Assembly: GCA_965226885.1 (NCBI GenBank)
Contig: CBDDEL010000009.1
Span: 144,776 to 208,775 of the forward strand
DNA: 64,000 bases
Direction: 5' to 3'
From: Opitutales bacterium
GTDB lineage: Bacteria; Verrucomicrobiota; Verrucomicrobiia; Opitutales; UBA2987
The notes beneath the pieces are model-generated. The model did not search any database. It was not told the origin of the DNA and saw nothing but the letters and a program-made list of their open reading frames with translations. Of the stretch, positions 12,177 through 49,356 are shown piece after piece (position 1 is the first letter of the stretch; every line of letters begins with the position of its first letter). The translations under genes and the position numbers were made by a program.

Positions 12177-13124
12177 TTAGAGGAAATAGCGTTCGATTCG
12201 ATCCAGGAGCCATTGCGCCCGGCGTTGAAAGATGAGATTGGACAAACGCCATTCTGGGCGAATATCTGTGTCGATGGCGAGAGCCTTGTAAAGGAGCATG
12301 CGGAATTCGGCACGATTCTGGTTGGGAATGGAGACCGCTTCGGCCAGGGCGAGATGAGGTCCCGCTTGTAGACCGCCGGACAACTCGATGGCTCGTTGAT
12401 AGTGGCGCCGCGAACGAATTTCGGGCAATTCCGCATCTTTGCCGCGATTCATCTCGTAGGTGATGAGAAAAGAGTGGATGGCCCCGTAATCGTAGGATTC
12501 GTCCAATTCCAGGGCTCGGTCGATGAGGGCATCGACTATTGGAAGATCGCCGATCAAATCGGCCTCCTTGGAAATGGCTATAGCGGAGATCCAGGCCGAG
12601 GCCGTCCAATAGAGAAGGGGAACATCCTCCATGGCCGCTTTTTGGACAATTTTTTGGGGATTCTCTCGCATCCCGGCCTGAAAACCGGGCATACTCACCT
12701 CCAGGCCCCGCAAGCCGTAGTTGCGGGCTCGCAGGTAGAGTTTTTGAGCCCGGTTGCGAAGGGCGAAAGCGACGTCCAGATCGGTGTCCTCCAGACGATC
12801 GGCCTCTTCCTGAACAAAAGCAAATCCGTACTGGGTAAAACCGCTGGCTGTGGCGTAAAGGAGACCTTCGTGGTCGGGAACCTGCTCCAGTAGCGTTTCC
12901 ATCAATTTCAGGCTGAAAGGCATGGCTGCGCCCACCAGTTCGGGATCGTCGTCCGAAGTGAAAGTCGTGCCACCGGAAGCCAGGGCGTCCCCCATTTTAT
13001 TAATGGCGATTTTTTCCAGCGAAACGCACCCTTGAGTCAAGCATACCAGCAGGGCGAGGGCGAGTCTGGCTCGAATATGATGAGACGAGGCTTCCAGGAA
13101 ATTCAGACAGGCGATATTCTTCAT
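12177..13124 (-). CDS. TRAP-associated TatT-family lipoprotein
   Basis: Lipobox LTQGC; DDDPELVGAAMPFSLKLME.LL, FTQYGFAFV, LYW.A.AW motifs; upstream of DctP/DctQM. Start uncertain. Confidence 0.8.
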   Translation of the reverse strand: MKNIACLNFLEASSHHIRARLALALLVCLTQGCVSLEKIAINKMGDALASGGTTFTSDDDPELVGAAMPFSLKLMETLLEQVPDHEGLLYATASGFTQYGFAFVQEEADRLEDTDLDVAFALRNRAQKLYLRARNYGLRGLEVSMPGFQAGMRENPQKIVQKAAMEDVPLLYWTASAWISAIAISKEADLIGDLPIVDALIDRALELDESYDYGAIHSFLITYEMNRGKDAELPEIRSRRHYQRAIELSGGLQAGPHLALAEAVSIPNQNRAEFRMLLYKALAIDTDIRPEWRLSNLIFQRRAQWLLDRIERYFL

Positions 13125-13412
13125 GAATAGAGGGCCTCCTTTGCTTTCATTTGCAATTTCATAGCCAATCCGTAGCAAAAAGGGAACTGGTAAATTTCTG
13201 GATTACAATTTTGATAAAAAAAGAGGCTCTTCCGGGTTTTGGGTGGGATTTTTTAAAAAGCATAGTCAATATAAGAGGCAATAAAAATCACCGTGGCTTG
13301 GCGTCCCTAAAGAAAGAGATTGAATAATGGCTTTGATTATTTTCCAGCCATGATTTAAGTTGAAGCAATTTATTAAATTTGAAACATCGAAAAACCAAAG
13401 GAGAATCAGGGC

Positions 13413-13898
13413 TTGGACCTAAAAGAAATCAAACAGATCATCGATCTCATGAAGCGCTCGGACCTGAGCGAATTTGAAATCGAGGAAGAAGGATTTAAAT
13501 TGCGCATATGCCGGGGCTCCAAGGGCGACCCACCCCAGGTTGTGACTATGGGCACGACAAGCCCGTTTCCTCCGCATGTCATGGAAGCGGTAGCGGTGCC
13601 CCAACCGCCCGCCGAATCGCAACCTATGGAACAAAAGGTGGAAAAGATGGACGAAAATATCGACTTCATCAAATCCCCCATGGTGGGAACCTTTTACCGG
13701 TCCGCTTCTCCGGAAAGCCCACCCTTTGTCGAAAAAGGTTCCGAGGTGGAGCCGGAATCGATTGTTTGTATCATTGAGGCAATGAAAGTCATGAACGAAA
13801 TCCAGGCTGATATGCCTGCCAAAATCATAGAGATTCTTGTCGAAAACGGTCAATCGGTCGAATACGGGCAGCCCATGTTCAAGGTCGAAAAGACCTGA
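13413..13898 (+). CDS. accB: Acetyl-CoA carboxylase biotin carboxyl carrier protein
   Basis: IKSPMVGTFY and biotinylation motif EAMKVMNEI; TTG start. Confidence 0.95.
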   Translation: MDLKEIKQIIDLMKRSDLSEFEIEEEGFKLRICRGSKGDPPQVVTMGTTSPFPPHVMEAVAVPQPPAESQPMEQKVEKMDENIDFIKSPMVGTFYRSASPESPPFVEKGSEVEPESIVCIIEAMKVMNEIQADMPAKIIEILVENGQSVEYGQPMFKVEKT

Positions 13899-37356: not shown

Positions 37357-39192
37357 CAGGCTGTCCCAAAAGGGTGATTTTTGCGAGGGCTTTTGATAGG
37401 CGCTCATTTTTTTGATAGGCGCTCATTTTAGAGGTATTTGCATTTGGGAGAGTATCAACTTTGCTCTCCTATGACGTTAGGATACTGGTTTTGGGGTCCG
37501 GTTGCCTGGTTTTCTTTGTATGAGCCGACAGTACGGCTGTGAAAAAGTATTGTCCTTGCTTTTCCGCTCTCTAGGCCGCCGCTTTGGTTTTTAGTTCGTC
37601 TTGCTGGGCCAGCATCTTGGCTACTTTCCATAGGTTGTGCGAGAGTACCGACCAGGCTACGCTGATCGAGCGGTTGGCAAAGCCTTTGCTGCGCAACCGC
37701 CCGGCCTGCCAGCGATTCTTCAATACCCCGATCCGCCCTTCGGTGCTGGCCCGGCGCTTTTGCAATTGTCTGAACAGTGGTTCCTCCATCCGTTTTTTCA
37801 ACTGCTTCGGATCGCGTGGACAGAGCGCGTCGTAGATTCCCTCCTGGGCTAACTCCCAGCGGGCCCGCTGGGAGGCAAATCCCCGGTCCGCGCACATGGC
37901 CGCTATGGGTTCTTCCAGGTTGAAGCGGTTCTGTCTTTGCAAACTCTCTTGCATTTGTTCATTTTCGCTTGGAGTTCGGCTGCCGTAGAGTTTCCAGTCC
38001 AGCAGGTACCCTTCAACGCTTTCTCCCAAAAACAGGGTGTTGCCGAACTCGACCTCTTGGCCCGCTTTACCTCGCACAATCACCTGCCCATCGAGTTCGT
38101 AAACACTCAAGACTTTCTCTGCGTTTTTCACCTGGCGGCCGCCAATGATCCGCTCGTGCGCCTGTTTGATGACCACCGGGATTTGCTCGCTCATGCGCTC
38201 CATCCGGGCGAGGATCTGTTGGACCTGTTTTTCGCTGTAATCGCTTTGCTCCCAGCAGGCTTGCAATAATTCCCGGTGACTGCGGGCATGCTCCCCGATC
38301 CGTTTGAGCAGCTTTTTCATCTGCCTCAAGATACCCTTGCGCTGCCGCGCGCTGTCCTTTCGCCGCCGGCTGTGGGTCATCTGTATGCACAGCCGATTCA
38401 TCTGCCGAGCCAAGGGCTCCGGTTCGATCGGCATGCGATGGCGCACACCGGCCTTCTCGCGGATCAGCCGGATCGCTTTGAGCAACGTGCCGGCTACATC
38501 CTTGAGTAATACCCAGTCCGTCGGCCAATGAATGTTAGCCTCCAAACAGGTGCCGTCGATCAGGCAAATGGTGGTGTCAATCGGCTTGTCCAATCCCACC
38601 TGCCGGGCCAGAAGGGCATCGCCCACCACCTCAGTCAAGGTCCGGTGCAAGGCCCTCAACTGCTCTTCGCTGAAAAACTTCGAGGCCCGCTCCAGGGTGC
38701 TTTTGGAGATGCCCCTGATGCCATCGATCTGCCGGACACGGCAAAAGTCGGCCAACAGATCGCTGCTGCCCAGAGCCCGCGACAAATGCCGAAACGAAAT
38801 CCCTCCGAGCAGACGGCCCAGCGTATCCATGCGCAGTGCCTTGATGGCAAAACTGGCCCGCTGCCGCCGGGCCTTTAGACCCATTGGCTGCCACCCCTCC
38901 AAGGCCAGCTCAATGGCCTGCGATTCCACCTCCGAGTCGATCAGCAGCCGATCGATTCGATCAATGGTGGCGCGGAAGTTATCGTAATCGAGGCACCGGT
39001 CGACCACAGTTAAAGCTGGACGCAGGAGGCATTGGATGGCTATATTTTTCATAGAAAGGGCTATATTGATTTTCGCTAACTCAATTATAGAACCCTTTTT
39101 TGGCCGGATCGAGCAAAAACTTGCTCTTTCCGGCTCTTTTTATCAACGTCATCCAGTTGACTATAAAATCTTTATATTTTTGGGACAGCCTC
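37357..39192 (-). mobile_element. IS5-like/ISNCY element, copy 2 (transposase 37571-39052)
   Basis: Near-identical to 24587-26403; TA flanks; 19-nt internal duplication 37392-37429; three amino acid differences. Confidence 0.88.
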
Positions 39193-39495: not shown

Positions 39496-40823
39496 TGATG
39501 TGCACTGGAAAAAGTGGACACGAGATTCTCCTAAATGGAGAATCGAAGCATGGGAAGAAGACGCTTTAGTATAGAGTTCAAAAATGAGGCAGTTCAACTG
39601 ATGATACTCGATGGTCTGAGCGCCACCGAGGTATCGACCAAACTTAGGGTCAACACCAACCAATTGTATAGGTGGAAGAGGCTCTATCTGGACGATCAGC
39701 AGGGCGAAGCCACCTCAAAGCGACAGAGCAGTCCGAAGGAGATGGCGGCCGAGATAGATCGTCTTCGCAAAGAGCTGCGCCGCTCGGAGCGGATCAACCA
39801 GATACTAAAAAAAACGGTGGGCTACTTTGCCAAGGACGAACAATGAAGTACCAGTTTGTCAAAGACAACGAGGGGCGCTTCAAGATCGAGGAAATATGCT
39901 CGGCGATGGGGATTTGTCGCAGTGGCTATTACTGCTGGAGGCACCGAGCGCCCTCGGCCCGGCGGATCGAGGACGAGGGAATCAAGGGGGCGATCCTGAA
40001 GGTACACAAAGAGGCCAAGGGCCGCTATGGGCATCGGCCAATGCACCGCCATCTGAAGGATGATGAGGGCATCGATTGCGGCCGTGACCGGGCTCTGCGT
40101 CTGATGCGTGAAATGGGAATCAAAAGCACCCAGAGTAAACGCTTTAAGCCATTAAAAACCAACAGTAACCATCCCTATGGTTACAGCCCCAATGTGCTTA
40201 AAAAGCATGGCCAGCCGACCCATATCGACGAGGTCTGGGTGGCGGACACGACCTACCTACGGACCCTGGCCGGTTGGATGTACTTGGCCACGGTGATGGA
40301 CCTGTTCAGCCGACGCCTGCTGGGCTGGAGCGTTTCCAACCACAACGACGCGAAGCTGGTTGGCAAGGCCCTCAAAGCCGCGGCCATGACCCGCGGCACA
40401 CTGCGCACCGGGATTATTCATCACAGCGATCGGGGCAGCCCCTACGCCAGCGACGACTATCAGAGGCTGGTCTCTGAACTAGGCATGAAGCCGAGCATGA
40501 GCGGCCAAGGCAACTGCTACGACAACGCGGCCATGGAATCGTTCTACGGCCGCTTCAAGACCAGCACGATTCGAGGCCGCCACTTTGCCGACGAGCGCGA
40601 ACTGCGATCAACTGTCTTCGAATACGTGGAAATCTTCTACAACCGATATCGCAAACATTCCTCTCTGAGTTACCAAAGCCCAGTCCAATTCGAGGAAAAT
40701 ATTTGCCCCCCATGGGGGGCAACGAGAAAACAAAACCCTTTACCAAAACAAGCCGCCTGACACACTAATCAATAAACAATGAATATAAGAGAATCCCGTG
40801 TCCAACAAATCCAGTACACGTCA
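39496..40823 (+). mobile_element. IS3-family element, complete (orfA to 39846, orfB 39843-40760)
   Basis: Ends TGATGTGCACTGGA.../...TCCAGTACACGTCA; ATGA overlap; A8 run 39807-39814; WVADTTY, HHSDRGS.Y, CYDNA.MESF. Confidence 0.95.
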
Positions 40824-41390
40824 CCTACGGACCCTGGCCGGTTGGATGTACTTGGCCACGGTGATGGACCTGTTCAGCCGACGCCTGCTGGGCTGGAGCG
40901 TTTCCAACCACAACGACGCGAAGCTGGTTGGCAAGGCCCTCAAAGCCGCGGCCATGACCCGCGGCACACTGCGCACCGGGATTATTCATCACAGCGATCG
41001 GGGCAGCCCCTACGCCAGCGACGACTATCAGAGGCTGGTCTCTGAACTAGGCATGAAGCCGAGCATGAGCGCCCAAGGCAACTGCTACGACAACGCGGCC
41101 ATGGAATCGTTCTACGGCCGCTTCAAGACCAGCACGATTCGAGGCCGCCACTTTGCCGACGAGCGCGAACTGCGATCAACTGTCTTCGAATACGTGGAAA
41201 TCTTCTACAACCGATATCGCAAACATTCCTCTCTGAGTTACCAAAGCCCAGTCCAATTCGAGGAAAATATTTGCCCCCCATGGGGGCAACGAGAAAACAA
41301 AACCCTTTACCAAAACAAGCCGCCTGACACACTAATCAATAAACAATGAATATAAGAGAATCCCGTGTCCAACAAATCCAGTACACGTCA
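40824..41390 (+). mobile_element. IS3-family element, 3' fragment in tandem
   Basis: Near-identical to 40256-40823, including the right IR. Confidence 0.92.
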
Positions 41391-41462
41391 AAGGGAATCG
41401 ACCTCAAAAGCAACAGTTAGTTGGCAGCTTTTTCTCCCCGCCTGGAATAAGGCCTGGCGAGT

Positions 41463-42119
41463 TCATTCAACCAATATCTTTTTCGCCGCGCTGGCCCCGA
41501 TGGTCAATGTTTTGCCGGTGCAGAGAGAGAAAGTGACCGTGCCGGCAACCTGGTTTTGTTCTAAAATCTTGAGATCCGTTCCTGGCTGAAGCCCATTATC
41601 TTCAATGAATCGAAGAAATTCCGGGTCTTGATCGGTAATGCGCGATATGCACAGAGGCTCTCCTCTCGGACTGCCGGAGAGATTCTCCAGATTGCGGGCG
41701 TCGATTTTTCCTTTGGCCGTGGGAATCGGGTCTCCGTGCGGGTCCACCGTCGGGTATGCCAGCAGAGCGTCGATTTTTTCTAATACCTTATCCGAAATGA
41801 CGTGTTCGAGTTTTTCCGCCTCCTCGTGTATTTCCGACCAACTCAGGCCGAGAATTTCTACCAGAAAAAGTTCGACCAGCCGGTGGCGGCGAAGCACATG
41901 CAAAGCGAGCTTTTCCCCTTTTTCGGTCAGCCTCACGCCTATGCGGGGGGCATAGTCGACCAAGCCCGAGTCGGCCAGGGACTTTGCCATAGTGGTCGTG
42001 GTGCCGGGGACGACACCCAGAGCCGATGCCACCCTGCCCATGGGAACCCGCGATCCTTCCGCTTGCTGCTGCTCCAACAGGATTTGCTTGAGGTAATTTT
42101 CTACGGTGCTAGTGGCCAT
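41463..42119 (-). CDS. DtxR/MntR-family metal-dependent repressor with C-terminal FeoA-like domain
   Basis: ENYLK.I, RRHRLVELFL, HEEAEKLEH, DPHGDPIP. Confidence 0.92.
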   Translation of the reverse strand: MATSTVENYLKQILLEQQQAEGSRVPMGRVASALGVVPGTTTTMAKSLADSGLVDYAPRIGVRLTEKGEKLALHVLRRHRLVELFLVEILGLSWSEIHEEAEKLEHVISDKVLEKIDALLAYPTVDPHGDPIPTAKGKIDARNLENLSGSPRGEPLCISRITDQDPEFLRFIEDNGLQPGTDLKILEQNQVAGTVTFSLCTGKTLTIGASAAKKILVE

Positions 42120-42212
42120 GAGTTGAGACTTTTTTGCGAAGCTGACAGGTTTTCGGGTTTTGAACAAATAAAATCCTTTTACGACGTGTCCCTGATTAAT
42201 TATGTTTGTGCC

Positions 42213-43058
42213 CTATCTTAAACGGCGCCGAATTTGGATGCTGGCCTGTTCCACCGCCAGGACCACCAGCATGGTTACCAGCACCATGGTGGCAACGCTC
42301 CGGTAGTCGAAGGCGCGGCGGTAGTTTTCTATCCACAAACCCAATCCTCCCACTCCCACAAATCCGAGCACGGCGGAATCGCGAATGTTCATATCGATGC
42401 GAAAAAGAATGAGCGAAGCGAATTGCCTGGAAACCTGCGGCCAGATGGCGAAGCGGACCTTTTGCAGCCAGTTGGCGCCAGCACTGTCGAGCGCTTCCCA
42501 GACGCCCCATTCGGCGCTCTCGCATTGTTCCGCAAAAAGTTTGCCCAGCATCCCAATGGAGTGAATGGCTATGGCCAGGACGCCCGCAAACGGTCCCAAC
42601 CCAACTGCGGCGACAAAGAGCAAAGCCAGCACCAGGACCGGGATCGACCGCAGAAGTGCCAGCATGGTTTTGATCGGATGGTGTATCCAGGCCGGAGTCA
42701 GGTTTTCGGCTGCCAGAAAGCCCAGTCCAAAAGCGGCCAGGGTTCCCAAAAAAGTTCCCAAAAGCGAGATTTGCAGGGTCACCGCGACGGTTTCACCGGC
42801 CAGCCGCAAGGGCGGCACAAAGGGCCGCGCCTCGGTCGGATTCCAGGATAAATCCGGGGGCAGCATGCGGGAAAGAAATAGCTTCAGGTTGGGGGTCGAT
42901 CGTGCCAACTCGAAAATATTCATTTCCGTGCCCACCCAAGACCAGACCAAAACCGCGGTTACCGAAGCGAGAATAATGAGATGGACCGCAATCCGTTTCC
43001 CTTTACCCGGAAACGGGGGCGGCGTCATCATCGAAGTAGAGGAGGTTTTTTCCGCCAT
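42213..43058 (-). CDS. PhnE/PtxC-type ABC permease
   Basis: LRSIP.LV.ALLFV.AVGLGPFAGVLAI..HSIGMLGKLFAE, NIRDSAVLGFVG.GGLG. Confidence 0.88.
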   Translation of the reverse strand: MAEKTSSTSMMTPPPFPGKGKRIAVHLIILASVTAVLVWSWVGTEMNIFELARSTPNLKLFLSRMLPPDLSWNPTEARPFVPPLRLAGETVAVTLQISLLGTFLGTLAAFGLGFLAAENLTPAWIHHPIKTMLALLRSIPVLVLALLFVAAVGLGPFAGVLAIAIHSIGMLGKLFAEQCESAEWGVWEALDSAGANWLQKVRFAIWPQVSRQFASLILFRIDMNIRDSAVLGFVGVGGLGLWIENYRRAFDYRSVATMVLVTMLVVLAVEQASIQIRRRLR

Positions 43059-43785
43059 AGATTCCTTCCATTTTTGATTCCGTGAGTGTGTCTGAAGGGC
43101 CGTCGAAAACGACGCGACCTTCCTTCAAGCCGATAATTCTTTTTGCGTAAGTCTTTGCCAAACGTGGCTGGTGCAAGCTCATAATGAGGGTGTTTTCATG
43201 GTGTTTCTGCACTTCTGACAACAGTTGCAGGACTTCCGCCGCCCGCAGGGGGTCGAGGCTCGAGACCGGCTCGTCGGCCAGGATGAGGGAAGGGCGTTGA
43301 GCCAGGGCGCGGGCCACGGCCACTCTTTGTTGCTCGCCCCCGCTGAGCGTTTCCGCCATTTGATGAACGAGATCGGACAGACCCACCTCGCAAATGGCCT
43401 CCCAGGCAATGCGTCGATCCCGGGGCGGGAAATAACCGAATAACGAGGGGAGCGGATGCGCCGCCCCCAGCCGCCCACAGAGAACGTTTTGCCAGACCGT
43501 CATCCTCGGAGCGAGATGGAATTGCTGGTAGATCAACCCCATCCGCCGTTTGATCCGGTTTCTCTGCCGACGCGCCGCCAAAAAAAGATTGCAGCCCAAT
43601 ATTTCGACTTTTCCCTGAACCGGCGGCACATAGCCCTTGAGGCATCGCAGAAGGGTGCTTTTGCCTGCTCCGCTGGGACCGATTACAGCCACTCTTTCGC
43701 CGCCCTCAATACGGAGGCTTGGAATGGCGAGGGCCGCCGGCTTGTTTTTGCCGTAACGAACCTCCAAGTGTTCGATTGTGACCAT
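43003..43785 (-). CDS. PhnC-type ABC ATPase
   Basis: GPSGAGKST, NVLCGRLG, LSGGEQQRVAVARAL, ILADEPVSSLDP, SLHQ. Confidence 0.9.
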   Translation of the reverse strand: MVTIEHLEVRYGKNKPAALAIPSLRIEGGERVAVIGPSGAGKSTLLRCLKGYVPPVQGKVEILGCNLFLAARRQRNRIKRRMGLIYQQFHLAPRMTVWQNVLCGRLGAAHPLPSLFGYFPPRDRRIAWEAICEVGLSDLVHQMAETLSGGEQQRVAVARALAQRPSLILADEPVSSLDPLRAAEVLQLLSEVQKHHENTLIMSLHQPRLAKTYAKRIIGLKEGRVVFDGPSDTLTESKMEGIYGGKNLLYFDDDAAPVSG

Positions 43786-43806
43786 GGGTCGGATGGCGGG
43801 GTCAAG

Positions 43807-44739
43807 TTATGGAGAAAATAATTCCGGTTTTTTAACGAAACCGTGACGCGCCGCGATCTTCGCTACTTCGGAAAAATCGGAAAGCCGGGCTTTCGTAAAC
43901 CCGCGCACCCCATACAATTTATTCAATAAAATTTTATCTTCCGGGTCGTTCCAATCCAGGGCCAGTAGGGCTTCCTGGATTTTCTCCCGGATTTCCTGGC
44001 TCAGTCCCCGGCGTGCCATGACCAGATGAGATGGACTTTGAATGGAATCGGCAATGGTCATTACCCGGTCGCGTTCCTCCGGCCGCAGAAGTAGGTAGGC
44101 GTACTGGCTGATCCCGGCCGCATCGACAAAGCCGTTGAGAACGGCGCGGATGGCCTGCTCGTCCCCGCCCGCAAAATAGACTTGTTTGAAAAATCCGCCT
44201 TCCGGCTTGTTGCCGTTGAGCAGTTTGGCCCGGTTGAAGACATCCCTTGGCAATAAATGCCCCGACATGTCCACCTGGTCGGCATAGGCAATGGTTTTCC
44301 CCTGCAAATCGGCCAGGCTGGCGATCGATTCTCCTCGCCTTACCCAGATAGAGGAGTGGTAGGTGGGTTGGCCGCTCTCATAAACTTCCAGCAAGAGCGG
44401 GATGACTCCGATTTGCTCATGGGCCATCATGAAAGCCAGTGGATCGACAAAGGCGAGGTCCGCTTTTTCAGCCCGCATGGCTTCGATGGAAGAGCCGTAG
44501 TCCAGGGTGATGAAACCCTTTACCGGCCTACCCAGAAGCGGCTCCAGGTAATTCAGAATGGCTTCGCTGTCGTAGGCCACCTGTTGGGGATTGGCATAGG
44601 AGATAAAGGCGATACGGAGTTCCCGTTCATCGGATTCCCCACCTTTTGCCAGCGGATTGGATTGCAGGATCGTCCCGACTACAACTGCTATAAAAAAGGC
44701 TTTCATGGACATACCCGTAAACGAAAATTGTTGGTTCAT
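43807..44739 (-). CDS. PhnD-like substrate-binding protein with atypical binding site
   Basis: Signal peptide; DY...IEAM....ADLAF..P, Y.S.I.VR, DLQGKTIAYAD; DMSGH and GGDE where PhnD has STSG and GH. Confidence 0.8.
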   Translation of the reverse strand: MNQQFSFTGMSMKAFFIAVVVGTILQSNPLAKGGESDERELRIAFISYANPQQVAYDSEAILNYLEPLLGRPVKGFITLDYGSSIEAMRAEKADLAFVDPLAFMMAHEQIGVIPLLLEVYESGQPTYHSSIWVRRGESIASLADLQGKTIAYADQVDMSGHLLPRDVFNRAKLLNGNKPEGGFFKQVYFAGGDEQAIRAVLNGFVDAAGISQYAYLLLRPEERDRVMTIADSIQSPSHLVMARRGLSQEIREKIQEALLALDWNDPEDKILLNKLYGVRGFTKARLSDFSEVAKIAARHGFVKKPELFSP

Positions 44740-46658
44740 TTTAACACCTCCACATTTTCTGCGTAGAGCGCCCGGTATTCGGCCACTTTGGTTCGCACTT
44801 CTTCAACATTGCCCTCGCGGTTGGCGGCAAGGGCTTCGTCCATGATTTCTGCCATCATTTCCAGGATCGGTCGATATTGTGAATCCCGCAGTTCCCATTT
44901 ATGATTGCGGATCTCGAACGCGATGGTTTGGAAAGTCAGATTGATGGAAACCTGCTCGTTCTTTTCTTCCAAAAACTCGTAGGCCGATAGAAAAAAGTAA
45001 AACTCCTCCATCTCGGCATCCAGGTAGTAGGTGGTGTCTTCGTAGGGATCGATTCCATCTCCCACCGTTTCCAAATAGGCCGTCAGGTCTTCTTTTTCAT
45101 TTTCATCCAGATTGAGGCCGTAAGTCCGGTCAAACCAATCGACGACCGAACGCAAGGTGGGCTGGCTCCCGTCATGAAAATAGGGCGGCGACCAAAGGGT
45201 GCTGAGCAGGGTGGGGGTGTCCATAGTCCTGTCCAGCGAGTTTTCTCCGTAACCGGATACCGTACCGATGTCGTGTCGTTTGTGATCGACGAAATTGGCC
45301 GAGGGAATATGGCAACTGGCGCAGCTCATCCCGCCCATGCGGGAAAAGGGTTTGTTGAAAATCATCTCTCCCCGTTTGGCCGTTTCCGGGGCTGTCTCGG
45401 CCAGCTGGCCATCTTTTTGCAAATGCTTGTTGGGCAGAAAGTCGAACTCGTTCATGTAGGCGATCAAACCGTCCAGGATAACAGGGTCCGGCTCCGGTCC
45501 GTTGAATTCATTGACGATTACATTGCGGGTAAATTCGCGCAGTGATGCGAAACGCCCGTTGCGTCCATAGGGAGCGGTAAAGCGGATGCCGCGCAAATCG
45601 GGGATATTGAGGGGATCGAAATGTCCGTTGTTGGCATGGGGGGCAAAGAAGCTGTTGGACACATCCATACCGCCCTTTCTTCCAGACAGGCCCGGTATCA
45701 TGAAATCTGGGTTGGTGATGCTTTTATTGTGGCAGCTATTACAGGACAAGCCGATTGAGCGCATGGGGTTTCCGTAGATAAAGGCGCTGTCGAAAGCCAT
45801 GTCCCCCACCGCTATGAGCGGCGTCCCGGCTTCGTCCACCCCGCGTGAAGCCATGTTGAGAATTTGCCGTGGGCGCGGTATTTGTTTGTTGATATTGCTG
45901 CCGGGGGGAAGTTTCATGGGCAGTCGCGCAGTGGAATCATAGGTTGGACTGCGGACCGGACGGGGGGCCAGTTTTATTCCGGCGGAAGGAATAAAATCTT
46001 CACCGAAATTCATGCTCAAATACTCGACAATTTGCCGGGCAGCCCGTTGGAAATCATCGCGATTGGCTTCCACCACGCCGAACCCCAGCAATCCCGCCGA
46101 CCCCAGCGCATTGGTCATGCCAAGCCAGCTTTGACCCAAATGGTAGTAGCCCTCCATATCGCCTACCCGTATAACGTCCGAAAATGAATCGAATACTCCG
46201 CGGGCATTTTCGACCTCTTTAGAGGCTGCCTGCGGGGTTTCAAACAACTCCTCGGCAACACCGATATGCTGCCGGCACAAGGCGGAAACGCTCTTGGTAA
46301 GGGTTTGAAAAACTTCCCGACTGTCCATGTTTTCGAGGCCTTTTATTAACTGCCGGTTAAAATGCTCTCCTACTGCCGGAGCGAACTCATTCCAGTAGTT
46401 GGCGACTGTTTCCAGGTCTCCCTTGACCCATTCCCAGTCCACCGGATTAAGATTAAGAATGAAGGCCGACCGCCGATAAGCCTCGGCCACCGGATGGAGG
46501 TTCTCCTGGGGAATAATGTGGGCTATGGCCAGACCTTGCCCCAATGCCAAAAGAGCGATTAGGGTAAACGGAATCTTCTTGCCAGGCAAACTTTGGCACA
46601 TCCGCAGACCAGCAATTTGATGGATGTTCGACCAGGTAAATATTGAATTTAAACGCAT
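44736..46658 (-). CDS. Exported di-heme cytochrome c peroxidase/MauG-family protein with long N- and C-terminal extensions
   Basis: CNSCH (45743-45729) and CASCH (45323-45309); P.LRGI..TAPY, RGE.IF, DTPTL....SPPYFHDGS..TL..VV. Start may be ATG 46601. Confidence 0.8.
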   Translation of the reverse strand: MRLNSIFTWSNIHQIAGLRMCQSLPGKKIPFTLIALLALGQGLAIAHIIPQENLHPVAEAYRRSAFILNLNPVDWEWVKGDLETVANYWNEFAPAVGEHFNRQLIKGLENMDSREVFQTLTKSVSALCRQHIGVAEELFETPQAASKEVENARGVFDSFSDVIRVGDMEGYYHLGQSWLGMTNALGSAGLLGFGVVEANRDDFQRAARQIVEYLSMNFGEDFIPSAGIKLAPRPVRSPTYDSTARLPMKLPPGSNINKQIPRPRQILNMASRGVDEAGTPLIAVGDMAFDSAFIYGNPMRSIGLSCNSCHNKSITNPDFMIPGLSGRKGGMDVSNSFFAPHANNGHFDPLNIPDLRGIRFTAPYGRNGRFASLREFTRNVIVNEFNGPEPDPVILDGLIAYMNEFDFLPNKHLQKDGQLAETAPETAKRGEMIFNKPFSRMGGMSCASCHIPSANFVDHKRHDIGTVSGYGENSLDRTMDTPTLLSTLWSPPYFHDGSQPTLRSVVDWFDRTYGLNLDENEKEDLTAYLETVGDGIDPYEDTTYYLDAEMEEFYFFLSAYEFLEEKNEQVSINLTFQTIAFEIRNHKWELRDSQYRPILEMMAEIMDEALAANREGNVEEVRTKVAEYRALYAENVEVLK

Positions 46659-46722
46659 GTATTGGAATAAGATTTATTATGTTTCGATTCCCAGAAACTT
46701 TTTTTTGGACTAATAGTCAAGG

Positions 46723-46744
46723 ACATTTTGATTAATCAAAATGT
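46723..46744. promoter_or_regulatory. Perfect 22-bp palindrome, candidate DtxR/MntR operator
   Basis: ACATTTTGATTAATCAAAATGT, 64 bp upstream of ATG 46658, next to a minus-strand TTGACT (46720-46715). Confidence 0.7.
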
Positions 46745-46869
46745 GAAAATAGAGCAATATTCCATCCTTGCCGGGATTGAATTAAGCCTGCCGGAATGAT
46801 GAGGAATGGTCCTCTTGCCGTGATCAATGAGTCGAAGGCAGGGCCTCAAATTCGGCCACCCACATCGGT

Positions 46870-47400
46870 TTATGGGGCTTTTGCCAGAGCCGCGAGGGCA
46901 TCCTGGGCCTGGCTGGCCGGGGTGGCCTTGAGATCCCGCCAGACTATTTTGCCGTCCTTGATGAGGAAAGCCTGCCGGCGGGCATAGGTATCCACATAGG
47001 GCACCCCAAAAGCCTGCACAACTTTTCCCTTGGCATCGGCAATCAAAGTGAATGGCAGGTGGTATTTTTCCTTAAAGGCCAATTGCGCCTCGGGCGTGTC
47101 CATGCTTACGCCAAAAACGGTGATGCCCGCTTCGCCCAACTCCGTGTAGGCGTCGCGCAGGTTGCAAGCCTGGGTGGTGCAGCCCGGCGTGTCAGCCTTG
47201 GGGTAGAAATACACCAGCACGGCGCCCTTTTTGTAATAATCCCCAAATTTTACTTTTTTGCCCTTCTCGTTCACGCCCTTTATCTGGGGGGCTTTCTGGC
47301 CAACTGCAATGGGTTCAGCCATTTCAGCCATAGAGGTTAATAACGAGATTGGGAAAAACAGAAAAGCCAAAAAAAAAGATTTCACGGCATAATTAGTCAA
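46870..47400 (-). CDS. bcp: Peroxiredoxin BCP/PrxQ with signal peptide
   Basis: YFYPKADTPGCTTQAC motif; hydrophobic N-terminus. Confidence 0.88.
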   Translation of the reverse strand: MTNYAVKSFFLAFLFFPISLLTSMAEMAEPIAVGQKAPQIKGVNEKGKKVKFGDYYKKGAVLVYFYPKADTPGCTTQACNLRDAYTELGEAGITVFGVSMDTPEAQLAFKEKYHLPFTLIADAKGKVVQAFGVPYVDTYARRQAFLIKDGKIVWRDLKATPASQAQDALAALAKAP

Positions 47401-47771
47401 TTCTTAATCGACCAGATAGTTGACTCCTTGGTCGCGCTGGCCAGTTTTTGGGTCGTGCGGTCGAGCCGTGTGGCCAGGGTTTTTATTATTTTCAGGGCAA
47501 TTTCGGGACTTTCCTTAATGAGCGCTTCCATATCGCCGTCCGGCACATGGATGACTTTCGAGTCGTTTTTCGCCCGCACCGTGCAGGTTCTGGGTTTTCC
47601 CAAAATATCCCCCATTTCCCCAAATATGGTTCCCGGAAACATGAGAACGCTGAGCAATACGTCATCCTTGAGCACTTCCAGTGAGCCGGATTTAAGGACG
47701 TAAAATCCCTGGCCGATCTCATCCTGCTCGATCACGTTTTGACCAGCCGGCACATTCAATTCCTCTTGCAT
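47397..47771 (-). CDS. Stand-alone cyclic nucleotide-binding domain protein
   Basis: FYVLKSG.LEV, FGEM...G.PRTCTVRA; no HTH. Confidence 0.85.
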   Translation of the reverse strand: MQEELNVPAGQNVIEQDEIGQGFYVLKSGSLEVLKDDVLLSVLMFPGTIFGEMGDILGKPRTCTVRAKNDSKVIHVPDGDMEALIKESPEIALKIIKTLATRLDRTTQKLASATKESTIWSIKN

Positions 47772-47877
47772 AATATTTCCCCGTGAAAAGGTTATGATGG
47801 TAGTTATTGGAAACTGAGGTTAGTTGTCGCTTTTTCTATTGGCAAGAAGCGGCAAGAAGCTTTTCTATCCAATGAAT

Positions 47878-49356
47878 TTATAAATTTCGCAAATAACGGT
47901 GCAGTTGCAAACTGTTTTTTTCCCCAATCCCGTCAACCGCGCGCAGTTCCTGGGGGGTGGCCTTTTTCAGCCTCTGAGTGGTTTTGAAATGATTGAGGAG
48001 GGCATTTCGGCGCACCGGGCCAAGCCCCGGCAAATCATCCAATACGGTTTCCTTCATTCGCCGTGAACGCAGCTGGGCGTTGTAGGTATTGGCGAAGCGG
48101 TGGGCTTCATCGCGGAGCCGCTGGAGCATTTTCAGCCCCTCGCTGCGGGCCGGCAGATTAAGGGGCTCCCGCTCATCGGTAAAAATGAGGGTCTCCCGTC
48201 TTTTGGCCAATCCGGCCATGGCCGGTGGTTCGATCTCCAGGGCAATGAAAGCTTTCAGGGCCGATGTCAATTGGCCTTTACCGCCATCGATCAGGATGAG
48301 GTCGGGGAGGGGCTTCTTTTCATTGAGGAGCCTCCGGTATCGGCGGCCGACTACTTCTTCCATGGCCCGGAAATCGTCGTTTCCGATAAAACTTCTTATT
48401 TTGTAGTGGCGGTATTTTTTTCGATCCGGCCGGCCTCCCGAAAAACGCACCATGGAGGCAACGACAAAAGTTCCCGATATATGGCTGATGTCAAAACACT
48501 CCATCTGCTCGGGCCGCCCCGGCAGACGGAGCTTCTCCTGCAATTCAGCCAAGGCCTCGTCAATCGCTGCGTGATCGGAGGGACCGAATGGGCGGGAGAA
48601 CTTACGCGTTTTCAGCACTGTCTTTTCCAGCGCAAAGACGATGTTCCTCAAATAAGCCGCTTTTTCGTATTGTCTCTTTTCCGCCGCAGCCATCATTTCG
48701 GCTTTCAGTTCGACCAGCCATTGGCGCGATTTCCCCTCCAGAAAGACGCACGCTTCATCCACCCGGCAGCAGTATTGTTCACTGCTGAGATGGTTGGGGT
48801 GGCCGTAAATTTCCTTCCGCACGTCCTCGTAAAGATGCCAGGAGCCATCCGGTTGGCGAATGGGCCGGGCGTCGCCCAACAGGATACCAAACCGCAGTCG
48901 CATCTGGGAAAGCGTTTTTCGCAAAAGGCCGGAGTGGGCGAACGGCCCGTAATAGGCGGAGGCGTCCTCATTGCGAAACCGGGTCAGCCGGAATCGCGGC
49001 ATTTCGTTCTGCCGATCGACCCTCACCAGTAGAAAGCGTTTGTCGTCCGTAAAATCGGTGTTGTATTTGGGCTTCCACTGTTTGATCAGCTTGCCTTCGA
49101 GCAGGAGCGCCTCGGCCTCCGACTTGACCTCAATGACGTCGAAACCATGAATGAGGTCCACCATGACGGCTATTTTCGGCTGCTGCGCGGTAAAACGGCG
49201 CGACGGCTGGAAATAACTGGAAACCCGTTTTTTCAAATCCTTGGCCTTGCCCACATAAATGATCCGGGCCAAACGGTCTTTCATCAGATAAACGCCCGGC
49301 CGGTGGGGCAGGTGCCGCACTTTTTCTTTTAAAAGGCTCGATTCGGGGGCTGGCAT
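47878..49356 (-). CDS. uvrC: Excinuclease ABC subunit C
   Basis: PGVYLMKD...IIYVGKAK.L..RV.SYF, ECFDISH, PDLILIDGGKGQL, RDEAHRFA, HhH C-terminus. Confidence 0.95.
   Translation of the reverse strand: MPAPESSLLKEKVRHLPHRPGVYLMKDRLARIIYVGKAKDLKKRVSSYFQPSRRFTAQQPKIAVMVDLIHGFDVIEVKSEAEALLLEGKLIKQWKPKYNTDFTDDKRFLLVRVDRQNEMPRFRLTRFRNEDASAYYGPFAHSGLLRKTLSQMRLRFGILLGDARPIRQPDGSWHLYEDVRKEIYGHPNHLSSEQYCCRVDEACVFLEGKSRQWLVELKAEMMAAAEKRQYEKAAYLRNIVFALEKTVLKTRKFSRPFGPSDHAAIDEALAELQEKLRLPGRPEQMECFDISHISGTFVVASMVRFSGGRPDRKKYRHYKIRSFIGNDDFRAMEEVVGRRYRRLLNEKKPLPDLILIDGGKGQLTSALKAFIALEIEPPAMAGLAKRRETLIFTDEREPLNLPARSEGLKMLQRLRDEAHRFANTYNAQLRSRRMKETVLDDLPGLGPVRRNALLNHFKTTQRLKKATPQELRAVDGIGEKNSLQLHRYLRNL

Follow-up and report, generated by a model that had tools for sequence, protein, structure and literature searches.

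A Di-Heme Protein and a PhnDCE-Type Transporter Form a Conserved Bacterial Cassette with a Possible Role in Trace-Metal Acquisition

Introduction

EfeUOB, FtrABCD, FetMP and the eukaryotic pairing of ferroxidase with transferrin each rely on an oxidoreductase, periplasmic or extracellular, that sets the redox state of a metal and passes it on to a binding protein or permease. The classic Fe(III) site of transferrin consists of two tyrosines, an aspartate and a histidine, together with an anion loop. MauG and MbnH are di-heme enzymes, each of which acts on a partner protein, and MbnPH is tied to metal (copper) handling. At the level of regulation, some DtxR-family proteins with Asp/Glu ligands also respond to iron. 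Post-translational modification by the MauG/MbnH-type enzyme family is mentioned in the abstracts of PMC6405878 and PMC11951088. PMC13217887 describes the TBDR-pTFP module of Stenotrophomonas maltophilia, which is extracytoplasmic, includes a redox-fold periplasmic protein and is controlled by an MntR box.

The locus described here resembles each of these systems in part. Its transporter has the architecture and fold common to the PtxABC, PhnDCE and HtxBCDE importers but differs in the binding pocket, in an obligate di-heme partner, in DtxR/MntR-type rather than Pho-type regulators, and in the lack of catabolic genes found in the genome. By analogy with EfeUOB, FtrABCD, FetMP and ferroxidase plus transferrin, an oxidoreductase may pass a redox-set metal to a binding protein and permease, although in this locus a di-heme c-type protein takes the redox role and an ABC system serves as permease. 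As with MbnH-MbnP and MauG-preMADH, a di-heme protein of the bCCP/MauG superfamily is encoded beside a periplasmic partner on which it is predicted to dock; here, however, an ABC binding protein stands in the place of MbnP or an amine dehydrogenase, and the predicted contact is made by additional helical domains. Finally, a family repressor, a palindromic box near the promoter and an uptake operon that includes the repressor's own gene are shared with MntR/DtxR-controlled MntH and MntABC/SitABCD, from which the locus differs, as it does from the S. maltophilia module, in pairing a PhnDCE-family transporter with a di-heme protein. On balance, the cassette is somewhat better explained as a repressor-controlled, high-affinity system for acquiring a trace metal, most likely manganese and possibly iron, than by anything else. 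It probably represents an undescribed route of trace-metal scavenging; no description of this gene combination was found in the open-access literature searched, in keeping with the sequence-only reading, which knew of none.

Locus Anatomy and Candidate Operator

In the window (the entire 64,000-nucleotide stretch analyzed, from an Opitutales bacterium), a 22-bp palindrome precedes a row of five minus-strand genes (Table 1), every element lying where the sequence-only reading had placed it. The di-heme and binding-protein genes share 4 bp (44736-44739), an overlap that translationally couples the second to the first. In the NCBIfam scan, PhnE scored 259.9 bits against TIGR01097, above the cut-off of 216.7, and the PhnC-like ATPase scored 258.3 bits against TIGR02315, slightly below the cut-off of 266.1. 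The true start of phnE may lie further downstream, since its longest ORF runs 56 bp into phnC. For the regulator, the ATG at 42119 is the likelier start, giving a protein of 218 aa as in its orthologues at two related loci (L002 and L003).

Table 1. Features of the locus, with positions numbered within the window.
Feature	Position	Strand	Remarks
Palindrome ACATTTTGATTAATCAAAATGT	46723..46744	.	Candidate operator of DtxR/MntR-family repressor
TTGACT, -35-like hexamer	46715..46720	-	2 nt downstream of palindrome
Di-heme protein, secreted, 640 aa	44736..46658	-	Two CxxCH; PF03150 match
PhnD/PtxB-fold periplasmic binding protein, 310 aa	43807..44739	-	PF12974 match
PhnC-type ABC ATPase, 260 aa	43003..43785	-	PF00005; TIGR02315
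PhnE-type ABC permease, 281 aa as longest ORF	42213..43058	-	TIGR01097
DtxR/MntR-family metalloregulator with C-terminal FeoA/SH3-like domain	41463..42167	-	PF01325, PF02742, PF04023

The palindrome has 11-nt arms that are 100% complementary with no spacer, contains the core TTTTGA-N4-TCAAAA, and lies 65 bp upstream of the di-heme ATG. No second copy appears in the window when up to 3 mismatches are allowed (0.00 matches expected from 100 shuffles), or in the 5.48-Mb genome when up to 4 are allowed. Four aligned upstream regions (the window and L001-L003) conserve the palindrome, and CTTGACTA is invariant across them. Over 80 related loci, totaling 1,091,678 bp, the exact core occurs 17 times. 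Fifteen of these occurrences fall inside -300 to +30 of di-heme starts (24,272 bp in total), while one of the remaining pair separates dtxR from a divergently oriented di-heme gene (L010) and the other is immediately 5′ of dtxR (L014); all 17 matches sit in regulatory regions of the system. Sites with one mismatch were found at the start of a ZnuA-family gene (L011) and 5′ of dtxR (L039). Other lineages carry two further palindromes in place of the TTTTGA core, namely TTTAG-N6-CTAAA, with 16 of 17 matches upstream, and TAGC-N4-GCTA, with five of seven.

With a repressor bound at the palindrome, RNA polymerase would plausibly be kept from the TTGACT hexamer. This hexamer is -35-like only; a generic sigma-70 scan detected no complete promoter there. 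Counting against the metal-acquisition reading, the exact core is present in just 7 of the 16 loci that have a long-form DtxR neighbor. In the window's genome, the operator occurs only before this operon and is absent before all Nramp-family matches, so the regulator's metal cannot be cross-checked via a known manganese gene.

The Metalloregulator

All three Pfam families of the regulator score above their cut-offs, and it is the sole DtxR-family gene found in the window's genome, where three Fur-family genes were also found. Its best solved relatives are 5zr4 (E 1.7e-42), 8pvt, SloR (5cvi) and ScaR (3hrs), which we take to be manganese-responsive, with IdeR and DtxR behind; against the MntR equivalog model it scores 171.3, below the cut-off of 350. 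It carries Glu at the DtxR Cys102 position and, counting against a manganese reading, Asn where manganese-type members have Asp and DtxR has Met, two residues from which the metal specificity of DtxR-family proteins is not reliably readable. DtxR/MntR-family genes are present in 25 of the 80 loci, mostly immediately adjacent to the cassette, and no DtxR-family gene was found in the DNA covered for each of the other 55. At the DtxR Met10 position, the 25 neighboring regulators have Asp (13), Asn (6) or Gln (3) and never Met, with three unmatched; Glu occupies the Cys102 position in every one of the 13 that the search pattern matched, and the other 12 gave no match.

Conservation and Neighbors of the Cassette

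The phnD, phnC and phnE genes follow the di-heme gene in order and on the same strand in 68 of the 69 genome loci whose downstream DNA extends for 2.7 kb or more, and the 69th (L046) fails solely because of an overcalled ORF. In the reverse direction, a di-heme homologue lies directly 5′ in 51 of 51 metagenome loci that were found via the binding protein and have at least 600 bp upstream. Among the 76 loci where phnD was matched, 29 show the same 4-bp overlap between the di-heme and phnD genes. Together, di-heme-PhnD-PhnC-PhnE is a fixed, obligate four-gene cassette, and it is spread over many, mostly marine, bacterial phyla. The sequence-only reading had looked to co-occurrence of all five genes and the palindrome, and had named lack of conservation as grounds for abandoning it; the cassette proved conserved in the genome loci, but the regulator gene and the exact core are found across the 80 loci only at the frequencies given above. 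Judging by title, many of the records stem from marine water-column or sponge samples.

The genes found beside the cassette fit cation uptake. They encode PF13557 outer-membrane channels (15 of 80 loci), OprB porins (5), ZIP transporters (3), a TonB-dependent receptor (1) and a ZnuA-family binding protein (1); a phosphorus-related neighbor occurs in just one locus (L010). Clustering and Pfam scans of the neighboring genes found no PhoB-type or arsenic-type regulator family. The sequence-only reading had seen no C-P lyase gene in the window; a scan of the entire genome (96.3% complete) likewise gave no C-P lyase gene (PhnJ, PF06007) and no phosphonatase above cut-off.

The Di-Heme Protein

The match of the di-heme protein to PF03150 (CCP_MauG; 47.9 bits, cut-off 25.6) covers only residues 428-504. 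A signal peptide ending in A-I-A precedes His47, the predicted first mature residue, and is followed by an N-terminal helical domain (~56-218), a divergent bCCP/MauG-like core bearing C306xxCH310 and C446xxCH450, and a C-terminal four-helix bundle (~545-639). Both CxxCH motifs are invariant among 82 di-heme sequences, and Trp is aligned at the Met-ligand position of the electron-transfer heme. No Pfam family was found for residues 47-300 or 535-640, and ~300 extra residues thus belong to no known family. Of the named NCBIfam models, MbnH, a MauG-like protein and MauG come closest, yet all are far under their cut-offs; with 41 bits for TIGR04039 (cut-off 362.85) and 33.5 for TIGR03791 (cut-off 443.85), the protein belongs to neither of these two families. 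Its heme core was modeled at low confidence, and solved bCCP/MauG-type structures match it weakly (best Foldseek E 4.3e-3). Among the Foldseek matches was 6e1c, titled 'MauG-like protein associated with microbial copper homeostasis', and EfeO/EfeM appeared as weak rows (E about 1.8) for the first model and were absent for the better one. Pfam and NCBIfam scans of the proteins from all five genes gave no DyP, cupredoxin, EfeO/M75 or Ftr1 match. A secreted Bcp-type peroxiredoxin is encoded just upstream in the window's Opitutales relatives.

The Binding Protein and Its Predicted Contact

The binding protein matches PF12974 (Phosphonate-bd; E 3.1e-56, Pfam scan) and scores 137.4 against a cut-off of 261.1 for the PhnD equivalog model. 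It aligns full-length to PtxB (5o2j; E 5.7e-26 pairwise, 3.1e-39 by profile), and its best solved relatives are PtxB, phosphite-/phosphonate-binding PhnD, ArrX, HtxB and AioX. Mapping the pocket through the pairwise and profile alignments, with the PtxB ligand residues listed in the available part of PMC5700983, identified Y81, Y127, D157-M158-S159, D193 and H238. Both tyrosines are invariant (74 of 74). At the STS-loop position, DMS is found in 15 of 74 proteins, including the window's clade, where Asp thus enters the anion loop, and SSS in 59. With respect to the ligands named in that partial source, the PtxB His is replaced by an invariant Asp (D193) and the capping Tyr by an invariant His (H238). 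Read from these alignments, the pocket holds a transferrin-like Tyr/Tyr/Asp/His set, and by score the protein's profile also matches melanotransferrin (6xr0_M, E 4.8e-8). Since the majority clade keeps an SSS loop like the STS anion loop, the cargo could also be an oxyanion or a metal together with an anion.

A complex model of the di-heme and binding proteins scored 0.62, the median of three runs (0.68, 0.61 and 0.62), and the best of three controls scored 0.00. Scores this high were seen for 116 of 157 solved complexes and for 2 of 215 mismatched pairs, counts that apply only roughly here because the complex was modeled with its own alignments and riding hemes. The runs have at least 96% of contacts in common, with partner pLDDT of at least 85. 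The predicted interface comprises Y81, D154-V156, Y188-G191 and Q195 of the binding protein, among others, and the extra N- and C-terminal helical domains of the di-heme protein. Conserved residues are enriched on the binding-protein side (14 of 30 vs 51 of 248; Fisher p = 0.003), while conservation on the di-heme side does not exceed that of the remaining protein (10 of 26 vs 214 of 568; p = 1.0). The model thus supports docking of the di-heme protein on the binding protein.

Discussion

The system is proposed to work as follows. When cytoplasmic metal is replete, the DtxR/MntR-type protein would occupy the palindrome abutting TTGACT and keep the operon off. When metal is scarce, the secreted di-heme protein would be made together with the translationally coupled PhnD-fold binding protein, in which the phosph(on)ate-type STS-His and capping Tyr have been exchanged for the transferrin-like set. 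Using its helical domains, which carry no heme, the di-heme protein would dock where the binding protein's cleft opens, and its hemes may change the metal's redox state, for example from M(II) to M(III), such that the binding protein captures a hard trivalent ion by a logic like that of ferroxidase plus transferrin or EfeB plus EfeO. PhnC and PhnE would then import the captured cargo. The sequence-only reading had likewise proposed a phosphonate-family transporter repurposed for manganese or iron, one that works alongside a heme redox protein and is controlled by a DtxR/MntR repressor. All comparative tests run are consistent with that proposal, including the two-way co-occurrence, the recurrent adjacent manganese-type regulator genes, the conserved operator, the channel, ZIP and ZnuA-family neighbors, the loss of the STS-H motif, and a genome in which no phosphonate catabolism genes were found; the Ser-rich anion loop of the majority clade sits less easily with it. 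The data here establish the gene anatomy, the conserved cassette, the operator, the type of regulator and the altered pocket residues, with modeling in support of the contact; we infer the metallic nature of the cargo, its identity, and what the heme chemistry does and in which direction.

Iron instead of manganese is unlikely as the cargo but deserves the closest attention among the alternatives. The di-heme protein would oxidize periplasmic Fe(II) to Fe(III), the Tyr/Tyr/Asp/His site would capture the product as transferrin and FbpA do, and the regulator would sense Fe(II). The likeness of these residues and the anion loop to the transferrin site, the melanotransferrin match and the iron-scarce settings suggested by the record titles all point this way. 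The Met of iron-type DtxR/IdeR, however, occurs in none of 22 scored adjacent regulators and the Cys in none of 13, the genome has three Fur-family genes, a family that usually handles iron, and the regulator's closest solved relatives are presumably manganese-responsive. Rather unlikely too is protein maturation, by which a MauG/MbnH-like enzyme would oxidize a residue of the binding protein, such as an invariant Tyr, and so generate a metal ligand from the protein itself, the way MbnH does with MbnP, with the modified protein capturing metal for PhnCE. This would accord with the nearest named NCBIfam models, with the position of Y81, Y188 and D154, all residues of the cleft, in the modeled interface, and with the strict, translationally coupled pairing; yet the scores rule out membership in TIGR04039 and TIGR03791, a modified residue is not visible from sequence, and a catalytic maturase needs no one-to-one coupling, though coupling is compatible with one.

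Uptake and periplasmic oxidation of phosphite, hypophosphite, arsenite or a similar oxyanion, with the PhnD-like protein binding its anion as PtxB, HtxB, AioX and ArrX do, is improbable. Those proteins are indeed among its best solved relatives, PhnE exceeds its equivalog cut-off, and the majority clade retains the Ser-Ser-Ser loop and both pocket tyrosines. Against this stand the changes at the STS-H His and at the capping Tyr, the latter needed for phosphite binding according to the available text of PMC5700983, the Asp in the loop of the window's clade, the recurrence of DtxR/MntR-type regulators, the presence of a phosphorus-related neighbor in just one of 80 loci, and a genome in which neither PhnJ nor a phosphonatase was found. 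Very improbable, despite the PF03150 match and the nearby peroxiredoxin, is that an ordinary periplasmic peroxidase removing H2O2 merely happens to lie beside a transporter, given the two-way linkage over many phyla, the extra residues of no known family, the Trp at the Met-ligand position and the modeled docking.

Operon Structure and Conservation

The system in the window is a five-gene operon preceded by a perfect palindrome, and the gene order, overlap, strands and palindrome described in an earlier sequence-only reading were correct in every detail that could be checked by ORF calling, Pfam/NCBIfam searches and a palindrome search. The coordinates of the operon and of the elements around it are collected in the table below.

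Features of the operon and its surroundings in the window
Feature	Position	Strand	Evidence or description
Di-heme protein, 640-aa ORF	44736-46658	minus	Pfam CCP_MauG (PF03150), 47.9 bits vs cut-off 25.6, residues 428-504 only
Binding protein, 310-aa ORF	43807-44739	minus	Pfam Phosphonate-bd, E 3.1e-56; 4-bp overlap with di-heme ORF
PhnC-like ATPase, 260-aa ORF	43003-43785	minus	TIGR02315, 258.3 bits vs cut-off 266.1 (marginally below)
PhnE, 281-aa ORF	42213-43058	minus	TIGR01097, 259.9 bits vs cut-off 216.7 (passed)
DtxR-family regulator, 234-aa ORF	41463-42167	minus	Pfam, all three domains above cut-offs
Palindrome ACATTTTGATTAATCAAAATGT	46723-46744		65 bases upstream of first ATG; perfect 11+11 arms
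Bcp/PrxQ-type peroxiredoxin	46870-47400	minus	Hydrophobic N-terminus (likely signal peptide)
cNMP-binding-domain-only protein, 124 aa	47397-47771	minus	
IS3-type element	39535-41390 (listed span)	plus	HTH_Tnp_1 ORF 39535-39846; rve ORF 39672-40760
Exact 300-nt repeats	40255-40554, 40823-41122		568 bp apart
Second rve ORF	40798-41349		In the partial duplicate
DDE transposase ORF	37571-39052	minus	Weak match

The four-gene cassette of di-heme protein, PhnD-like binding protein, PhnC and PhnE is conserved and obligate. Scanning a single genome for each species turned up 82 confirmed places; 80 of these loci were retained. Where at least 2.7 kb was present after the di-heme gene, crude ORF calls searched with the window's proteins recovered phnD, phnC and phnE homologues, in that order and on the same strand as the di-heme gene, in 68 of 69 loci; the sole failure, locus L046, was caused by an overlong ORF call. 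The reverse test, a metagenome scan with binding-protein patterns, gave 80 loci; 51 of these extend at least 600 bp beyond the match on its upstream side, and in all 51 the gene directly upstream, on the same strand, is a di-heme homologue. The co-occurrence of the cassette genes that the sequence-only reading had proposed as a check was thus found in both directions, with counts that speak only for close relatives, both scans having been built on patterns from this family, and with related genomes among the loci that are not independent samples. Of the 76 loci with a phnD match, 29 share the 4-bp stop-start overlap.

The di-heme family itself is large and tightly conserved. Of 8000 proteins scored in a word-based search, 2115 had E ≤1e-3, the weaker of which may be ordinary CCP/MauG proteins, and the 120 matches listed were 53–100% identical and 533–688 aa long. 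At least ten groups of phylum level are named in the record titles of the 80 loci, among them Opitutales, Verrucomicrobia, Planctomycetota, Phycisphaerae, Acidobacteriota, Thermoanaerobaculia, Nitrospinota, Nitrospirales, Hydrogenedentota, Sumerlaeota, Lentisphaeria, Deltaproteobacteria and Oligoflexia. As these titles read, many of the samples came from marine water columns, trenches or sponges, and some from groundwater; members of the Nitrospinota are major marine nitrite oxidisers. Within the window's own order, the di-heme gene occurs in 9 of 151 sampled genomes (the window's own counted), namely in all six other genomes of the same family and in two of other families, so its distribution there is patchy.

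Apart from regulator genes, the cassette repeatedly adjoins a gene for an outer-membrane beta-barrel protein (PF13557, 15 loci) or an OprB-type porin (five loci); ZIP transporters are neighbours in three loci, and a TonB-dependent receptor and a ZnuA-family binding protein in one each. A phosphorus-related neighbour was seen in one locus only, L010, where a type I phosphodiesterase is encoded on the other strand. The amt, P-II, AMP-ligase and M20 genes that surround the Nitrospinota copies look like lineage synteny.

The Periplasmic Proteins

The binding protein fails the PhnD equivalog model TIGR03431 (137.4 vs 261.1) and passes only the broad subfamily model TIGR01098 (156.7 vs 112.05). Its best solved relative is PtxB (5o2j; E 5.7e-26 pairwise, 3.1e-39 with the family profile), followed by two phosphite-/phosphonate-binding PhnD/PtxB proteins, ArrX, HtxB, E. 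coli PhnD and AioX. In PtxB, according to the available text of the structural work, phosphite is held by two tyrosines, an 'STS-H' motif and a capping tyrosine, and mutation of the capping residue costs 2–3 orders of magnitude in affinity (PMC5700983). These residues were mapped onto the window's protein by pairwise and profile alignments, with conservation scored over 74 family members.

Counterparts of the PtxB ligand residues in the binding protein
PtxB residue	Window protein	Conservation among 74 sequences
Two pocket tyrosines	Y81, Y127	Invariant
STS loop	D157-M158-S159	DMS in 15/74 (window clade), SSS in 59/74
Ligand His	D193	Invariant Asp, 74/74
Capping Tyr	H238	Invariant His, 74/74

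Neither the STS-H ligand motif nor the capping tyrosine of PtxB/PhnD is kept. By alignment, the pocket keeps the two tyrosines and gains an aspartate and a histidine, with a Ser-rich loop at the helix start in most members. Transferrin ligands are Asp, Tyr, Tyr and His plus carbonate, and the pocket inventory predicted here, which is drawn from the PtxB alignment and not from a structure, resembles that set. The family profile also matches melanotransferrin (6xr0_M) by score, at E 4.8e-8, and none of the transferrin or FbpA Pfam families matched the binding protein at E ≤0.01. The sequence-only reading had noted that C-P lyase genes were missing from the window, and this extends to the 96.3%-complete genome, which has 0 matches to PhnJ and no phosphonatase match above cut-off; the only other Phosphonate-bd match in it is weak and lies inside a 1247-aa ORF.

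The di-heme protein carries two CxxCH motifs (C306-x-x-C309-H310 and C446-x-x-C449-H450) that are invariant in 82 aligned homologues. Its core is distantly related to hydrazine synthase gamma (the best solved relative by profile, E 5.3e-11), to bacterial cytochrome c peroxidases (CCPs, about 1e-8) and to MauG, and the best Foldseek E-value of its model is 4.3e-3. It fails the equivalog models for both MauG (TIGR03791, 33.5 vs 443.85) and MbnH (TIGR04039, 41 vs 362.85). The nearly invariant W508 (residues 505-508, window 45126-45137) aligns by HMMER, in a test of the region past the PYFHDG motif, to the methionine of 'NTMAD' in 3o5c, which we take to be, as in Shewanella CcpA, the ligand of the electron-transfer heme in canonical di-heme peroxidases. 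With a tryptophan at this position the protein is not a canonical peroxidase, and its second heme must be ligated otherwise than in those enzymes.

Outside the heme core, the AlphaFold model has about 170 N-terminal and 100 C-terminal residues as confident helical bundles, its pLDDT rising from 61.7 with 19 sequences to 76.1 with 82. The signal peptide ends in A-x-A, and the predicted first mature residue, His47, is at least 90% conserved; it is followed by an invariant E52 and by nearly invariant H55, P56, E59, Y61 and R62, a concentration of residues that hints at a possible metal site at the mature N-terminus. Searches of these regions returned little: Pfam gave noise only for residues 47-300 and 535-640 at E ≤10, the ESM Atlas had no usable match for residues 47-260, and the VIA-align rows matching residues 535-640 were generic four-helix bundles. 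An imelysin/EfeO-like helical domain is conceivable but unsupported, as EfeO (7wgu) and EfeM (7q1g) appeared weakly (Foldseek E of about 1.8) with the poor first model only and are absent from the Foldseek matches listed for the better one. No family typical of EfeUOB, FtrABCD or FetMP (Ftr1/EfeU permease, DyP, cupredoxin, M75) was matched among the five operon proteins.

Modelling supports binding between the two periplasmic proteins. With di-heme residues 47-640, binding-protein residues 33-310 and two hemes as input, the complex scored 0.62 (median of 0.68, 0.61 and 0.62), and the best of three controls scored 0.00. Among solved complexes 116 of 157 attain the 0.62 mark, as do 2 of 215 mismatched pairs, a calibration that is rough here because custom alignments and hemes were included. 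At least 96% of contacts were common to the runs, with a pLDDT of at least 85 for the partner. Solved complexes of this kind are not known to us, which makes a score drawn from memorized structures improbable. On the di-heme side, the predicted contact involves the mature N-terminus (49-52), a conserved segment (171-196) and helix residues 584-593; on the binding-protein side it involves Y81, D154-V156, Y188-G191, Q195, 199-205, 219-224 and 300-301. The latter surface is enriched for conserved residues (14/30 vs 51/248, p = 0.003), and the di-heme surface is not (10/26 vs 214/568, p = 1.0).

Probable Metal-Responsive Regulation

The regulator comprises an N-terminal DNA-binding domain (PF01325, 36 vs 26), a metal-binding and dimerisation domain (PF02742, 109.6 vs 27) and an SH3-like FeoA domain (PF04023, 50.9 vs 23). 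It aligns best to 5zr4 (E 1.7e-42), 8pvt, SloR and ScaR, which we take to be manganese-responsive regulators, ahead of IdeR and DtxR. Where these four have [EQ]DYLK, the window's protein has ENYLK, with Asn in place of Asp, and where they have H[DE]EAE.LEH it has HEEAEKLEH, with Glu at the position of DtxR Cys102. Its score with the MntR equivalog model NF047407 is 171.3 vs a cut-off of 350. Regulators encoded beside the cassette at related loci come in two forms, a long one with the FeoA-like domain and a short one of about 150–190 aa, and usually lie immediately next to it on either side. At the position of DtxR Met10, the 25 neighbouring regulators have D (13), N (6), Q (3) or are unmatched (3), with M in none, and all 13 that could be pattern-matched at the Cys102 position have E; Met10 and Cys102 are presumably the marks of iron-type DtxR. 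The window's genome has one DtxR-family gene and three Fur-family genes. Regulation may also be unlinked: in Acidobacteriota loci with the motif and no adjacent regulator, a DtxR-family protein is encoded elsewhere in four of five genomes tested, with EDYLK in three of the four (three being readable), and no autoregulatory box was found at ≤2 mismatches in the fetched 3.2-kb stretches around those dtxR genes.

The palindrome ACATTTTGATTAATCAAAATGT is the sole match in the window at ≤3 mismatches (expected 0.00) and in the 5.48-Mb genome at ≤4 mismatches. In an alignment of the window with its three closest relatives, an invariant CTTGACTA stands 2 nt downstream of the palindrome, which would fit repression at a putative -35 element. 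A sigma-70 consensus scan found no promoter in the leader (its three sites, vs 4.3 expected, all lie elsewhere), and in window 41000-48000 no match to an Rfam family, be it a riboswitch or another RNA element, scored as high as the gathering cut-off.

When the regions upstream of the di-heme genes were searched blindly for palindromes, the motif of the window emerged again in distant phyla. The core TTTTGA-N4-TCAAAA has 17 exact matches in the 1,091,678 bp of loci, 15 of them within the 24,272 bp that span -300 to +30 of di-heme ORF starts. Of the remaining two, one is in L010, where it separates a divergent pair of dtxR and di-heme genes, and one in L014, a short way upstream of dtxR. Cores with one mismatch occur upstream of dtxR in L039 and at the start of a ZnuA-family gene in L011. 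In the latter locus, from Planctomycetota, a ZnuA/MntC-family binding-protein gene (12626-13463) follows the cassette and has this one-mismatch core at its start (site at 12644), a hint that one regulator governs both the cassette and a classical Mn/Zn-type importer there. The regulator and palindrome, which the sequence-only reading had grouped with the other genes as one system, do recur at the loci, but as less constant members, with a DtxR/MntR-family gene in 25 of the 80 loci and the exact core in only 7 of the 16 that have a long-form regulator as neighbour. On the sequence evidence, the link between motif and regulator appears good, not perfect.

Other palindromes replace the window's operator in L043-L077 (Nitrospinota and other bacterial records) and in L012, L030, L040, L071 and L075. 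Of the 17 matches to TTTAG-N6-CTAAA, 16 are upstream of the di-heme gene, mostly in Nitrospinota; for TAGC-N4-GCTA the figure is 5 of 7, in Sumerlaeota and others. Each seems to be a variant operator of particular lineages, serving an unlinked regulator.

A larger regulon in the window's genome was rejected: the core has 17 matches at ≤1 mismatch, two of them exact, the second exact one lying inside an 816-aa ORF, and none stands convincingly in front of a metal gene. Nramp-family matches in this genome have no site at ≤2 mismatches close upstream, with one 2-mismatch site about 660 bp from one of them. The best Nramp-family match (contig C16, 573168-574179, minus strand) is itself in two parts: neighbouring pieces read in different frames match model positions 1-261 and 264-353, a possible frameshift that would mark either a pseudogene or an assembly error. 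If the frameshift is real, the canonical MntH-type importer would be broken in this organism.

Proposed Function

The most economical reading is that of a metal-repressed uptake system. An outer-membrane channel would admit the cargo in many lineages, the di-heme protein would dock on a binding protein whose site offers hard ligands, import would run through a PhnCE-type translocator, and a repressor of the manganese-responsive DtxR/MntR type would act at the conserved palindrome. We favour manganese as the cargo because of the regulator type and the presence of separate Fur proteins. Iron is a serious rival on account of the transferrin-like pocket set. Phosph(on)ate or another oxyanion, the cargo that the fold and its solved relatives would suggest, is unlikely, though less so in the clade with the Ser-rich loop, and the Asp and Met in the corresponding loop of the window's clade argue further against it there.

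The role of the hemes could be conceived in two ways. The di-heme protein might oxidize M(II) to M(III) for tight capture, much as a ferroxidase serves transferrin or EfeB serves EfeO; alternatively, by analogy with MbnH and MbnP, it might carry out an oxidative maturation of the binding protein. Taking metal oxidation at its fullest, the di-heme protein would be a periplasmic metal oxidase that docks on and loads a transferrin-like PhnD-fold protein with Mn(III) or Fe(III). The system would then be a parallel in bacteria to ferroxidase and transferrin and the first binding-protein-dependent ABC importer with an obligate redox partner, permitting sub-nanomolar manganese scavenging in Nitrospinota, Planctomycetota, Acidobacteriota, Verrucomicrobiota and others; we regard this complete scheme as tentative and rather improbable as a whole. 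Read as a case of redox-assisted, repressor-controlled metal uptake, the system has a real chance of working by a mechanism new in principle.

Each of the component families is known. The sequence-only reading knew of no described system with this combination, and that claim held: for the fixed gene combination, the re-tooled pocket and the predicted docking of a redox protein on an ABC binding protein, no description was found in the open-access literature searched, including the available text of PMC6405878 and PMC2631029. The nearest published idea, in what could be consulted of the source, is an MntR-regulated TonB receptor of Stenotrophomonas with a periplasmic thioredoxin-fold module (PMC13217887).

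Should the metal-uptake reading hold, a widespread and unnamed cassette would represent a new route of trace-metal acquisition, and the PhnD/PtxB fold would have been re-tooled from oxyanions to another cargo. Counts of phosphonate and phosphite genes in metagenomes would be affected, because the cassette genes are now labelled as phosphonate transporters and 'cytochrome c'. The cassette would also provide a concrete, testable instance of docking between a redox enzyme and an ABC binding protein, and the regulator-operator pair, with its three lineage-specific operator variants, would be a marker for predicting metal regulons in poorly studied phyla.

Flanking Genes and Mobile Elements

Two genes lie just upstream of the operon on the same strand, encoding the peroxiredoxin and the cNMP-binding protein. 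The pair precedes the operon only in the window and in two of its closest relatives (L002 and L003, of the Opitutales); L039 has the cNMP protein alone. As the other phyla lack the pair, it may have been added to the system within one lineage.

An IS3-type element, followed by a tandem partial duplicate of itself, adjoins the regulator gene on its downstream side, and beyond it lies a weakly matching DDE transposase ORF. These transposase ORFs place the cassette at the edge of a mobile-element patch. Elsewhere in the genome, the 22-mer ACATTTTGAATGTTTAAGCTGT and its reverse complement occur in about 45 copies across contigs C6-C17 (e.g., C9:2791 and C9:69765). It has only its first 9 bases in common with the operator, to which it is unrelated, and probably forms the terminal repeats of an insertion sequence present in many copies.
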